From the NCBI GenBank assembly GCA_050633245.1, contig JBOEGD010000047.1, positions 20,179 through 36,208 of the forward strand: a DNA stretch of 16,030 nt, given 5' to 3'. Source of the stretch: Calditrichia bacterium. Lineage in GTDB: Bacteria > Calditrichota > Calditrichia > RBG-13-44-9 > J075. Shown here one piece after another: positions 64-3,117 of the stretch (position 1 is the stretch's first letter; the number at the start of each line of letters is the position of its first letter). The position numbers and the translations under genes were made by a program. Below the pieces are notes generated by a model, which had not been told where the DNA came from, searched no databases, and saw nothing but the letters and a program-made list of their open reading frames with translations.

Positions 64-2409
64 TCATTCTTCCTGCCCAAACGGAATTGCCACACGCAGA
101 ACGATATCTCGTCCCGGGTCATCTGCAAAATAGCGGTAGCGGCTTTGGTAACTTCGGTAGCTGGCATCGAGAATATTGCGCACGCTGATGCTGAAGCGCG
201 GCGTCGTGTTACCAATAGGCATTTCAGCCCCAAACTCCAGGTTATGCAGTACATAGCCATCTGGTGGATCCACAATATCCTGCCCGGCCGGGAACCGATC
301 CTGCCGTGCCACGAAATCGGTCTGGTAGCTAAGGAAAAGTTCATCCAAACCAAGAGCGGTTGGCAGGTGAAATTCGTGCATCAGTCGCATACGATTGGCC
401 GGCATGTAGATGAGCGGCTCATCCGCATCGAGATTATCTGCCAGAAGGAATGATCCGCGCAAGCCGACCTGATAGGTAAGAGTCGGATGAAAAAAGAACT
501 CCCCCTCGAATCCACGCAGACGGGCATTCGCCTGAGCATAATCGAATCCCGGAAAGGCACCGCGAATTGTTACGCAGAGGTTTTCTCTTGGTTGGAGGTA
601 GATGAAGTCGGTAATGGAATTATTGTAAGCACTGACGCTCAGCTGTATACGCTCACCCTCATGCCGAACAGAGATATCGGCACTAAGACTGCTCTCGGAC
701 GTTAAATTTTCATTGCCAAACTCACACTGGGCACTACCATGATGCAGTCCCTGGCTATAGAGCTCGTTAATTCCCGGCGGACGCCAGGCCGTGCCGATAT
801 TTGTTCCCAAAGACCAGCCCGCTCCCAGCTGGTAGTTTAGTCCGACAGCCCCGGACAGGTTTTGGTAGGTATTCGTGTCTTCTGTGACAGCCCCTACCCT
901 TTCGACAAATGCCTTCTGCCAGCGATACTGATAACGCGCTCCCGCTTCCAATGTCAGGTTACCAGTGGTCCATTTTTCCAAAGCAAACACTGCTGCATTG
1001 TAAGCGCGGAAATTTGGAATCAGCGAGCCGCTGCTCTGGCGGGCATTTCCCTGCCGGGAGAAACTAACCCCGAAGCTACCAAAGAAATTATTTGCCGGTG
1101 TGTGGCGAAACGTCAGATCACCTGAGTAGGTTGTCAGCTCTAAATCGAAGGCTGCCTCTTTCGGTGGTTCTGAAGAAAAACGGCTGTGCGCATCAAATTC
1201 CTGTCGGTGGTTCTGCTGCCAGCCATACTGCATTTCCAGCATACCCAAGTGTCCGATTCGCTGACCTGCAAAGACTGAAAGTAATCGATGCGAAATGGAC
1301 TGCTTCGGCGCATCAATTTCGTAGGAAAATGAATTAAGACGCGCCGGTTCCCCACGCTCCAGCGCACGTTCAAGGTCGTTTAATGTTCCGATATGCGCAC
1401 CACGAAAAATACCCAAATCGGTATTGAAATGGCTGTAATAAGCTCTGACACTTCCGCTCTCGCGCTGAAACCCTACCGTCGCAGCACCGCTAAACTCAGC
1501 AAAGCCGGTGTTGTTTAACACATAGCCCGGAGTTTGAGCATCTCCGGCACGTCGACTACTGCCCTGCATCCTCCAGCTCAAACCATTAAAGCGCTCCGTA
1601 CGTCCTTCAATTAATAGCGACGCTGCCCCCTGCCGGTTGTTTGAAAACCCATTCAGGTTAAACTTACCGGCAACTCCGTAAGAAGATCGTAGACGTTTTG
1701 GCGATAATTTGATAACGCCACCAATGGCGTTTGAGCCATATTGCACGGTTGCCGGGCCACGAAGCACTTCAATTTGAGCTGGTGCAAAAGGGTCAATCGC
1801 AGGGCCGTGATCCCCACCCCATTGCTGTCCTTCCTGCGCAACACCGGCATTCATAATAGTAATGCGCTGGCTGTGCAAACCGCGGATAACTGGCTTGGAA
1901 ACGGCGGGGCCCGTTTGCAGCACCGTTACACCGGCTACCTCTTTTAAGCCCTCAGCAAGCGTTTGTCCGCGAATGCGCTCCAGCTCTTTTTCGTTTAGAA
2001 CAGTCAGAGACTGCGAGCTTTCCTTCTCAAGATTGCGCTGACCAAAAGTTGTTTCTTCAATAATCTCAATAAGAATCGAGGTCAACTGAAAAACACGATC
2101 TTCCTCTCTGTCCGGAAAAATTTCGGCGAGGAGCGTTTCGTAGCCCAGATAAATAATCTCGATAGAGTCTGGAAGAAGTGATTGCAATTCCAACAGGAAT
2201 ACCCCATCCTCATCGGAGGTAGTACCGATAATCTGATTACTCGTGCGATTCCGACTGCTTTGAAGAACAATAGAAGCTCCAGGCAATCCTTTACCGGTAT
2301 CACCATCTATTACCTGTCCAGCATAGCGGGTTGAATTTTGTGCAAACAGAGACGCGCTCAGTAAAATGGCTATCAATAACCATCTTACCGGCTTCATAAA
2401 ACTATACAT
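64..2409 (-). CDS. TonB-dependent outer membrane receptor, probably for metal or metal-chelate uptake
   Basis: Signal peptide (MKPVRWLLIAILLSASLFA-Q), N-terminal carboxypeptidase-regulatory-like domain (GQVIDGDTGKGLPGASI), plug motifs (KPVIRGL, QEGQQWGGDHG, IEVLRGPATVQYGSNAIGGVI), beta-barrel ending in NILDASY...PGRD, and a His loop LYSQGLHHGS. Start moved from the ORF-track 2448 to ATG 2409, which has GGAGG 4 nt upstream. Confidence 0.92.
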   Translation of the reverse strand: MYSFMKPVRWLLIAILLSASLFAQNSTRYAGQVIDGDTGKGLPGASIVLQSSRNRTSNQIIGTTSDEDGVFLLELQSLLPDSIEIIYLGYETLLAEIFPDREEDRVFQLTSILIEIIEETTFGQRNLEKESSQSLTVLNEKELERIRGQTLAEGLKEVAGVTVLQTGPAVSKPVIRGLHSQRITIMNAGVAQEGQQWGGDHGPAIDPFAPAQIEVLRGPATVQYGSNAIGGVIKLSPKRLRSSYGVAGKFNLNGFSNNRQGAASLLIEGRTERFNGLSWRMQGSSRRAGDAQTPGYVLNNTGFAEFSGAATVGFQRESGSVRAYYSHFNTDLGIFRGAHIGTLNDLERALERGEPARLNSFSYEIDAPKQSISHRLLSVFAGQRIGHLGMLEMQYGWQQNHRQEFDAHSRFSSEPPKEAAFDLELTTYSGDLTFRHTPANNFFGSFGVSFSRQGNARQSSGSLIPNFRAYNAAVFALEKWTTGNLTLEAGARYQYRWQKAFVERVGAVTEDTNTYQNLSGAVGLNYQLGAGWSLGTNIGTAWRPPGINELYSQGLHHGSAQCEFGNENLTSESSLSADISVRHEGERIQLSVSAYNNSITDFIYLQPRENLCVTIRGAFPGFDYAQANARLRGFEGEFFFHPTLTYQVGLRGSFLLADNLDADEPLIYMPANRMRLMHEFHLPTALGLDELFLSYQTDFVARQDRFPAGQDIVDPPDGYVLHNLEFGAEMPIGNTTPRFSISVRNILDASYRSYQSRYRYFADDPGRDIVLRVAIPFGQEE

Positions 2410-2411
2410 AG

Positions 2412-2515
2412 ATCCTCCACGCCAATTATATATGGCGCAATCGTACAATTGCGTACAACAGCGATTAAATCGCAGTCAGCAATAATTAAAATAAATTAAA
2501 CGATTAGTGGAGAAT
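2412..2515 (-). promoter_or_regulatory. Putative translational-control leader: SD/anti-SD helix enclosing three small hairpins
   Basis: mRNA AUUCUCCAC (2515-2507) can pair with GUGGAGGAU (2420-2412, contains the SD) as 8 Watson-Crick pairs plus 1 G-U. Inverted repeats at 2420-2437, 2436-2453 and 2461-2473 lie between them. Confidence 0.55.
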
Positions 2516-2794
2516 AGTGGGTGGGGCCCGGGAGGCAGAGGCAGAGGCAAAAACATCCTCTGTAATAATAGAAACCGGCTCGTCAATCTCAATTGTGGGA
2601 TACTGGCAAGCAGGTGCGGTGTCAGAAGAAGTCATTAGAAACCCGGTTGCACTTTTCTGCACGATACAAATCGTACAATCGTGCTCATCCGCGCATTCAT
2701 AAACGTGCCAGGCAGCTAATGTCATACTGCTAAGCAGCAATACAACCAGCGCTGCTTTCAAGTAATTCAAAGATGTTAGTTGCTTGACGTTCAT
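2504..2794 (-). CDS. DUF2946/CruR-like upstream ORF with N-terminal hydrophobic segment, H-D-CxxC and C-terminal RAPP arrest motif
   Basis: 96 aa with hydrophobic AALVVLLLSSMTLAAW, then HVYECADEHDCTIC, a low-complexity linker, and SRAPP four residues before the stop. It lies directly upstream of, and co-oriented with, the TonB-dependent receptor. Confidence 0.8.
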   Translation of the reverse strand: MNVKQLTSLNYLKAALVVLLLSSMTLAAWHVYECADEHDCTICIVQKSATGFLMTSSDTAPACQYPTIEIDEPVSIITEDVFASASASRAPPTILH

Positions 2795-3117
2795 GAGCCT
2801 AATATAGTTATTTTTAATTCAAACGCTACAAAACTATAATTTTCTTCCTAAAAAGGCTAGAAAAAAAATTAGTTTATTTGATTTCACGCGCGATAATCAG
2901 ATTATTCCCTCGCCGTATGATTAACACCAAGATTATCATATTCCCGGAATCTCGGTTCTGTTTGTGTAGATTCACTTTATGGAGTTAGTTCTCATCCCGA
3001 AATAGGATGGTTAATAATGACATACACGTCGGTCAAAAAAACATTTTGATTTTATTGCCTTTTGTCATTATGTATGAGTTGCATGTTGAAGCTTTGGCTA
3101 TGCTTCACGGACAAAGA

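Follow-up and report, generated by a model that had tools for sequence, protein, structure and literature searches.

In the window (the whole 16,030-nt stretch of DNA that was analysed), a small leader gene lies on the minus strand in front of a gene for a TonB-dependent receptor, and the same-strand order is leader, 94 nt, TonB receptor, a 188-aa lipoprotein and an ABC ATPase. The receptor was recognized by the Pfam Plug and barrel models (Table 1). Its closest solved chain by sequence was ZnuD (4rdr_A, 7.2e-27), and its NCBIfam matches (heme, ZnuD and copper) all fell below the cut-offs. We placed the receptor start at 2409 because, of the two in-frame ATGs, only this first one is retained in the related locus L006. 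Across the family of loci described below, the neighbouring genes include those for CobW, MacB/FtsX, a TonB receptor and a porin-like protein. The lipoprotein that follows the receptor (690-1256 of locus L002, minus strand; 188 aa) is a conserved operon partner: behind the receptor orthologues of L003, L004 and L005, too, there is a look-alike lipoprotein. The window's lipoprotein matched no Pfam family, and its only match, to MG4, was below threshold.

No Rfam family matched in the window at gathering thresholds. Neither a sigma-70-like promoter nor a minus-strand terminator was scored between the leader and the receptor (2410-2503), and the only minus-strand promoter-like match, in a scan for one promoter type, lies inside the leader gene. 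A 14-nt AT-rich block (window 2795-2815, minus strand) is identical in L006, where its surroundings differ, and ends about 5-7 nt before the leader start codon. This block may be a promoter -10 region near the start codon, implying a very short untranslated leader or none.

Table 1. Features of the leader-receptor locus, in window coordinates
Feature	Position	Strand	Basis or remark
TonB-dependent receptor, 781 aa from ATG 2409	64..2409	-	Pfam Plug 1.2e-19, barrel 5.3e-32
Intergenic leader, 94 nt, with conserved blocks and small hairpins	2410..2503	-	alignment with L006
SD arm GUGGAGGAU, GGAGG at 2414-2418	2412..2420	-	sequence and pair probabilities
SD-proximal hairpin GCGCCA/UGGCGU	2419..2438	-	consensus fold; 3′ arm shares two bases with SD arm
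Putative cruR/cutF-like leader gene, 96 codons (span includes stop)	2504..2794	-	ORF list; C-terminal RAPP-TILH
Anti-SD arm AUUCUCCAC, Ile-Leu-His codons	2507..2515	-	sequence, MFE/centroid, pair probabilities; U2513 is C in X2, X3 and X4 contigs
RAPP codons CGG GCC CCA CCC, residues 89-92	2519..2530	-	presumed arrest site; CCA in P site, CCC in A site
Three tandem GCCUCY hexamers (Ala-Ser x3) just before RAPP	2531..2548	-	alternative anti-SD copies, C>G bubble core, candidate rut site
C40-T-I-C43, presumed metal-binding CxxC	2666..2677	-	first Cys invariant in 26/26 aligned members
Hydrophobic N-terminal segment, residues ~11-28	2711..2764	-	presumed export signal or membrane anchor

The initial annotation had referred to a uORF before the receptor. 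A small upstream ORF does exist there, but it is a 96-codon gene (2794-2504) and not a mini-ORF. The best 15-residue Kyte-Doolittle mean in its N-terminus is 2.28, and the presumed signal was judged by this hydrophobicity alone. The protein has H30 and a His/Cys motif, 45 residues separate the CxxC (40-43) from RAPP (89-92), and four codons follow RAPP. The protein gave no Pfam match even at E<=10 and no NCBIfam match, and its Atlas model was poor (pTM 0.30). Among related strains the Arg codon of RAPP changes synonymously, from CGG to AGG or CGU; together with the retention of RAPP amid varying neighbours, these changes suggest that the peptide sequence of the leader is under selection. In genome G000, [RK][AG]PP occurs in the last 12 residues of 10 of the 72,566 stop-to-stop segments of at least 40 codons. 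Permuted motifs occurred 34-54 times in these segments, yet [DE][AG]PP was just as rare, with 9 occurrences. The combination of the motif, an N-terminal hydrophobic segment and a real-looking gene was found in that genome for the window ORF only.

Because a search of 61 related genomes with the single protein returned only the window's own copy, a profile search was needed. Across 86 species genomes of the phylum it found 23 places in 17 genomes, all 23 of which encode ORFs ending in [RK][AGS]PP plus 2-13 residues. A search with a 4-sequence alignment returned 1 metagenome locus and none among genome contigs. Database searches turned up few close relatives, the nearest being P0002 and P0003. 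P0002 is 82% identical to the window leader over a 73-residue BLASTP segment (76% of the query) and 75% identical in the full-length alignment. RAPP is retained in P0002, P0003, P0004 and P0006, and the tails behind it, with the window included, differ (TILH, AILH, ANLR, LYFL and A). A further candidate, P0005 (1014 aa, matched in 16 short stretches), was dropped as a repetitive false relative. In the alignment of 26 sequences, the hydrophobic N-terminal stretch was aligned across all members and the stretch from Cys to PP was almost gap-free. Invariant residues were C40, P91 and P92 only, and mean column identity was 25%. The distance from CxxC to the motif is 43-47 residues in the 12 family loci that have a CxxC; the second Cys, present in the window, is absent from 12 of the 24 tabulated family loci.

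The receptor orthologues in three same-family genomes each have a similarly built small ORF upstream. Outside this lineage, in FCB records labelled KSB1, Rhodothermales, Ignavibacteria, Kapaibacterium or Bacteroidota, such an ORF was also found upstream of the receptor at 29 of 36 ortholog loci. A relative carries the label Calditrichaeota, and a locus with a 49%-identical receptor is labelled KSB1. The Pfam DUF2946 model matched 6 of the 26 aligned members at E<=10 (best 7.1e-6), one of them (L023) over the cut-off, and look-alikes in the protein Atlas fell in DUF2946 and DUF2607 clusters, which we regard as leads only. Because the DUF2946 link thus runs through relatives (6/26, L023), we filed the window leader as CruR/CutF-like and not as a member of Pfam DUF2946.

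In 12 of the 24 family loci (L010, L011, L012, L013, L014, L015, L019, L022, L025, L026, L028 and L029), K-A-P-P, with the consensus F-x-N-K-A-P-P, replaces RAPP at the same position and spacing. Systematic mutagenesis found Arg to be irreplaceable for arrest in ApcA, ApdA and ApdP (PMC12992588), and the main text of the same paper does not contain 'KAPP'. Either arrest proceeds with Lys in this lineage, or the motif is used otherwise. Set against the mutagenesis, KAPP in half of the family would suggest an arrest chemistry peculiar to this lineage or a second role of the motif that does not involve arrest. Five family members (L011, L025, L027, L028 and L029) lie on one contig, C57 of genome G003, where they precede a lipoprotein, a MacB/FtsX permease, a TonB receptor and a CobW-type GTPase. 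Two of them are in tandem, with L027 starting 192 nt after L011. The cluster resembles an island for metal limitation in which each unit has its own leader.

The window leader is built like CruR (Bp2923) from Bordetella pertussis, a DUF2946 leader that combines a signal and a CxxC with a RAPP placed 3 residues from its end (PMC9426467). The class is marked by an N-terminal signal peptide or Nin-Cout membrane segment, and its CxxC-RAPP spacing is reported to be 45, within 1-2 residues, in >2000 DUF2946 proteins (Roy et al. 2022, PMC9426467). According to that work, the ribosome stalled on cruR bars Rho from a C-rich rut site that starts in the 3′ part of the leader, and metal relieves the stall so that transcription terminates before the receptor gene (PMC9426467). 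The cruR/cutF homologues are described there as operon-first genes with long intergenic regions (PMC9426467). Like CruR, the window leader heads a putative operon with a TonB-dependent transporter gene next, and has a presumed N-terminal export signal, a CxxC, 45 residues and a RAPP near its C terminus (followed by 3 residues in CruR and 4 in the window). A C-rich 3′ end, a long untranslated spacer and the expected polarity, in which the stall would turn the uptake gene on, are also shared. Unlike CruR, the window protein is not recognized by the Pfam DUF2946 model (PF11162), and it comes from a metagenome-assembled genome of the FCB group rather than from a proteobacterium. The spacer is 94 nt versus 162 in CruR, the receptor resembles ZnuD/heme receptors more than OprC-type copper receptors, and the CruR model has no helix that hides the SD.

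The second characterized relative, CutF of Rhodobacter capsulatus, provides such a helix: its stall on a C-terminal Pro-rich motif opens a stem-loop that shields the SD (PMC9973294; bioRxiv 10.1101/2025.02.05.636593). Neither CruR nor CutF was detectable as a mature protein (PMC9426467; PMC9973294). The window leader belongs to the same superfamily as CutF and has a similarly short intergenic region, its 94 nt being within the CutF-type range (PMC9973294). The window protein passes every one of the rule-based filters for 'CutF-like' proteins (Ozturk et al. 2023, PMC9973294), which ask for <150 aa, PP in the last 15 residues, an N-terminal signal and a next gene on the same strand within 1000 nt: it has 96 aa, PP at 91-92, the next gene 94 nt downstream and a signal judged by hydrophobicity only. 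In contrast, CutF has a CxxxC, a PPP motif and an involvement of EF-P, and its polarity is the opposite, since copper prolongs the CutF stall and turns on a detoxifying oxidase. The anti-SD of CutF is located in the intergenic stem-loop, whereas that of the window lies in the last sense codons.

The helix had been likened in the initial annotation to the switch of SecM-secA. In Escherichia coli SecM, an exported leader arrests at R-A-G|P and the ribosome disrupts a helix that hides the SD (PMC10951299, PMC9426467), with FxxxxWIxxxxGIRAGP as the arrest sequence (PMC12992588). SecM precedes secA, senses Sec pulling force, has a longer arrest sequence and lacks a CxxC, whereas the window leader has a TonB receptor gene downstream and ends in ...ASRAPPTILH. 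The resemblance to SecM would therefore be functional and by analogy only, with no membership. As a mechanism, the proposed switch is plausible and sound in principle, but stall-dependent unmasking of the SD is not new in principle, having been published for CutF of the same superfamily (PMC9973294; bioRxiv 10.1101/2025.02.05.636593). The RAPP core is shared with ApdA and ApdP (PMC10951233, PMC7897499, PMC12992588), which, unlike the window leader, precede Sec/YidC genes. Fujiwara et al. report an enrichment, throughout Gram-negative bacteria, of small secretory proteins ending in RAPP/RGPP in front of TonB receptor genes (PMC12992588). Their RAPP/RGPP survey names classes rather than the family of the window leader (PMC12992588); published family lists may already include this subfamily.

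We next describe the complementarity between the end of the leader and the ribosome binding site of the receptor. On the minus strand, the leader ends in the RAPP codons CGG GCC CCA CCC, then ACU, then AUU CUC CAC as the last sense codons (2515-2507) and the stop codon UAA (2506-2504). The stretch AUUCUCCAC (2515-2507, minus strand) can form 9 consecutive base pairs with GUGGAGGAU (2420-2412), of which U2513-G2414 is the only wobble. The GGAGG covered by this pairing (2418-2414) sits 4 nt before the receptor ATG (2409-2407). Thus the 9-nt complementarity with one G-U across the GGAGG of the receptor, as originally proposed, was confirmed from the minus-strand letters, as was the claim that the anti-SD begins 3 nt past the RAPP codons, a single Thr codon (2518-2516) lying between them. 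The folding check that had been suggested also came out in favour of the helix. It was present in both the MFE and the centroid structure of 2550-2395, and was the dominant predicted structure in the context of the full 481-nt leader mRNA, with pair probabilities of 0.75-0.98. Because the letters, the MFE/centroid structures and the 481-nt fold agree, we take the coordinates and the pairing to be correct.

Within the intergenic leader, the consensus fold of the window and L006 contains a 6-bp helix (2505-2500 with 2444-2439) in addition to the SD-proximal hairpin. The latter includes one compensatory pair, G-C in the window versus A-U in L006. An 11-nt direct repeat occurs on the minus strand at 2679-2669, in the CxxC codons, and at 2449-2439, in the intergenic leader. 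The intergenic copy lies within a block conserved in L006, and part of it pairs just after the stop codon in the consensus fold; this copy could be a regulator site or an RNA element.

The helix exceeds chance only marginally. When an equivalent 28-nt window was compared with the -22..+3 region, a run of at least 9 bp (Watson-Crick plus GU) was found in 4.4% of 3017 long ORFs, and a run of the same length in 6.1% of 489 long ORFs having a strong SD. With a 100-nt source window, the frequency of such runs rose to 16.6%. The z-score of the local fold (2550-2395) was -1.77, and 12 of 200 shuffled sequences folded as well. Of 30 shuffles of the 28 footprint bases, 10 retained roughly the same level of pairing with the SD, indicating that the C-rich composition rather than the exact 9-mer carries most of the effect. 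The SD itself is in keeping with the genome. Because the assembly has no 16S gene, SD use was gauged from gene starts: a 4-mer SD was found at -20..-4 in 43% of 3030 long ORFs versus 7% further upstream. The position of GGAG at the receptor start is typical for the genome, at the SD peak.

Conservation of the helix was mixed. In the short, low-depth contigs from related strains, U2513 is replaced by C in four contigs (runs X2-X4, one study), which turns the wobble into a G-C pair. This was the only variant seen in the helix, and it strengthens the pairing. Two contigs, X1 record 1 and X2 record 5, span the SD arm, and neither had a difference listed there. In L006, the sole relative with DNA (leader 55% identical), the 9-bp helix is not kept in register. 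The MFE structure of L006 pairs the SD with the CCUCC of the Pro-Pro codons, again in the stall region, and the two-sequence consensus of the window and L006 pairs it with the CCUCY just 5′ of the Arg codon. The expectation that homologous loci would conserve the helix or compensate for changes in it agrees with the strengthening strain variant but not with L006, nor with the orthologous modules of other lineages, in most of which there is no SD to pair.

In 12 of the 24 family loci, pairing between the stall footprint and the SD window of the next gene peaks at a probability of at least 0.66, and the other 12 show little or no such pairing. When all 28-nt windows of a locus were ranked by duplex energy against the start region, the footprint was in the best 5% in 7 of 24 loci, against ~1.2 expected, a figure that overstates independence because these are related loci, with L012 and L013 almost the same. 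The window's own footprint ranked at 6.6%. CCU, which creates CCUCC, encodes the first Pro in 14 of 24 loci, and it makes up 24% of Pro-Pro first codons in the window's genome. Spacers measure 190-440 nt in many family loci. Among the 29 orthologous leader-receptor modules in other lineages, 27 lack even a 4-mer SD at the heuristically chosen start, 2 have a 4-mer and none has a 5-mer; receptor starts for both the family and the module counts were chosen by eye or by a hydrophobicity rule, and some may be wrong. Because the SD is so scarce in these modules, SD masking cannot be their general means of coupling. It is at most a layer added in an SD-using lineage, and the SD-hiding helix appears to be specific to this one.

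How a stalled ribosome would act on the helix depends on its footprint. In a ribosome stalled on the RAPP core, the P site holds RAP and the A site holds Pro (PMC10951233), and when this geometry is applied to the leader, the anti-SD arm (2515-2507) lies at +9..+17 from the P-site codon. By the usual footprint, this distance would place the arm under the stalled ribosome, inside it or at its entry. The initial annotation had suggested that the arrested ribosome covers the anti-SD and frees the RBS of the receptor. The location of the arm agrees with the first part of this suggestion, but the second part fared less well: when the footprint (2536-2509) was masked in silico, the SD was still paired at >=0.9, with the upstream GCCUCY repeats (2548-2531) as its partner. 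The SD opened to 0.2-0.6 only when the upstream stretch was masked as well, for example by queued ribosomes. The accompanying claim that the stall corresponds to the 'on' state of the receptor agrees with the polarity of CruR, by analogy to which the same polarity may be expected here.

The assignment of the leader to the class of CruR/CutF-like arrest leaders controlling TonB receptor operons appears well supported by sequence anatomy and comparison. We infer the arrest, the metal (Zn or Cu), the polarity and the coupling. Taken as a whole, ORF 2794-2504 is likely to be a divergent CruR/CutF-like (DUF2946-related) metal-sensing leader, with a putative arrest and a mechanism as follows. The leader would act in cis while nascent, as a short exported metal sensor. 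At arrest, the CxxC 45 residues back would just have emerged from the exit tunnel, and metal binding at the CxxC, or export of the chain, would alter the duration of the arrest. The arrested ribosome would cover the C-rich 3′ end of the leader, so that the downstream TonB receptor operon would be on; relief of the arrest would expose the C-rich segment and turn the operon off. The exposed segment would pair with the GGAGG of the receptor in the 9-bp helix, as in CutF and SecM, and/or load Rho, as in CruR, and these routes are compatible. For Rho, we consider a contribution to the coupling evenly balanced between yes and no; for SD sequestration, the balance falls slightly on the negative side. 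The helix is plausible as a CutF/SecM-like switch, but it is statistically marginal and shares its C-rich segment with the Rho route.

The strongest competing explanation is attenuation purely of the CruR type, in which the stalled ribosome only blocks Rho and the complementarity to the SD is a by-product of a C-rich segment facing a G-rich one. This is what has been published for the one characterized DUF2946 leader that precedes a TonB receptor (PMC9426467). The 3′ end of the leader forms a C>G bubble (C 0.40 versus G 0.13 in about the last 60 nt, uORF positions 240-299), as do the corresponding ends across the family (mean C 0.32 and G 0.14 over the final 60 nt), and the genome has a rho gene (703.9 bits, over the cut-off). 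The by-product interpretation also fits the 27 of 29 orthologous modules that have no SD to hide, the shuffled footprints that pair about equally in 10 of 30 trials and the occurrence of helices of this length in 4.4-16.6% of genes. Against it, the helix is predicted at pair probabilities of 0.75-0.98 and its sole variant strengthens the pairing. In addition, at 7 of 24 loci of this SD-using phylum the stall site falls in the top 5% for complementarity to the start region, and the 94-nt leader fits the CutF-type range (PMC9973294). An untranslated 5′ end of the receptor gene would itself invite Rho, which makes the two routes hard to separate. On balance, we hold Rho acting by itself to be possible, though clearly less probable than its negation.

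A receptor transcribed from its own intergenic promoter or operator, with the conserved TGTACGAUUGC block as a regulator site, would leave the 3′ end of the leader and the SD on separate RNAs, and the helix would never form. Between the window and L006, the intergenic region matches the coding 3′ half in its degree of conservation, roughly, the 11-nt direct repeat (2679-2669/2449-2439) includes the TGTACGAUUGC block, and the intergenic regions of many family loci measure 190-440 nt. No sigma-70-like promoter was scored in 2410-2503, however, in the scan for that one promoter type; the conserved blocks form consensus-fold helices, one with a compensatory change, and cruR/cutF homologues are described as heading operons with long intergenic regions (PMC9426467). 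We consider a separate promoter improbable. Still more so is the idea that the leader works in mature, stable form as a metal-binding protein of the membrane, such as a chaperone or a partner of the receptor, with RAPP as a structural or interaction motif and without arrest: the export signal and the Cys/His motif would suit such a protein, as would KAPP in 12 of 24 loci, given the irreplaceable Arg of ApcA, ApdA and ApdP (PMC12992588), but the conservation of Cys, PP and their spacing alone while the rest drifts at a mean column identity of 25% suits a folded protein less well than a nascent-chain ruler, the Atlas model is poor (pTM 0.30), and CruR and CutF are undetectable as mature proteins (PMC9426467, PMC9973294).

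If the arrest-leader interpretation holds, it brings a little-studied lineage of the FCB group into the CruR/CutF class of nascent-chain metal sensors, through a subfamily that current Pfam and NCBIfam models miss. One orthologous group of TonB receptors carries such a leader across several phyla (29/36 loci). For annotation, genes of 90-110 codons of this kind should be called and labelled as regulatory leaders. A bolder idea, which we think unlikely but worth stating, is that the CruR-like leaders of this phylum have repeatedly made the codons within and directly behind their arrest motif a built-in anti-SD, so that one C-rich stretch would serve as both Rho loader and SD mask, a double transcription/translation gate on the uptake of a metal that is probably zinc. 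The locus is a compact natural case in which to ask whether a single C-rich segment can both mask an SD and load Rho.
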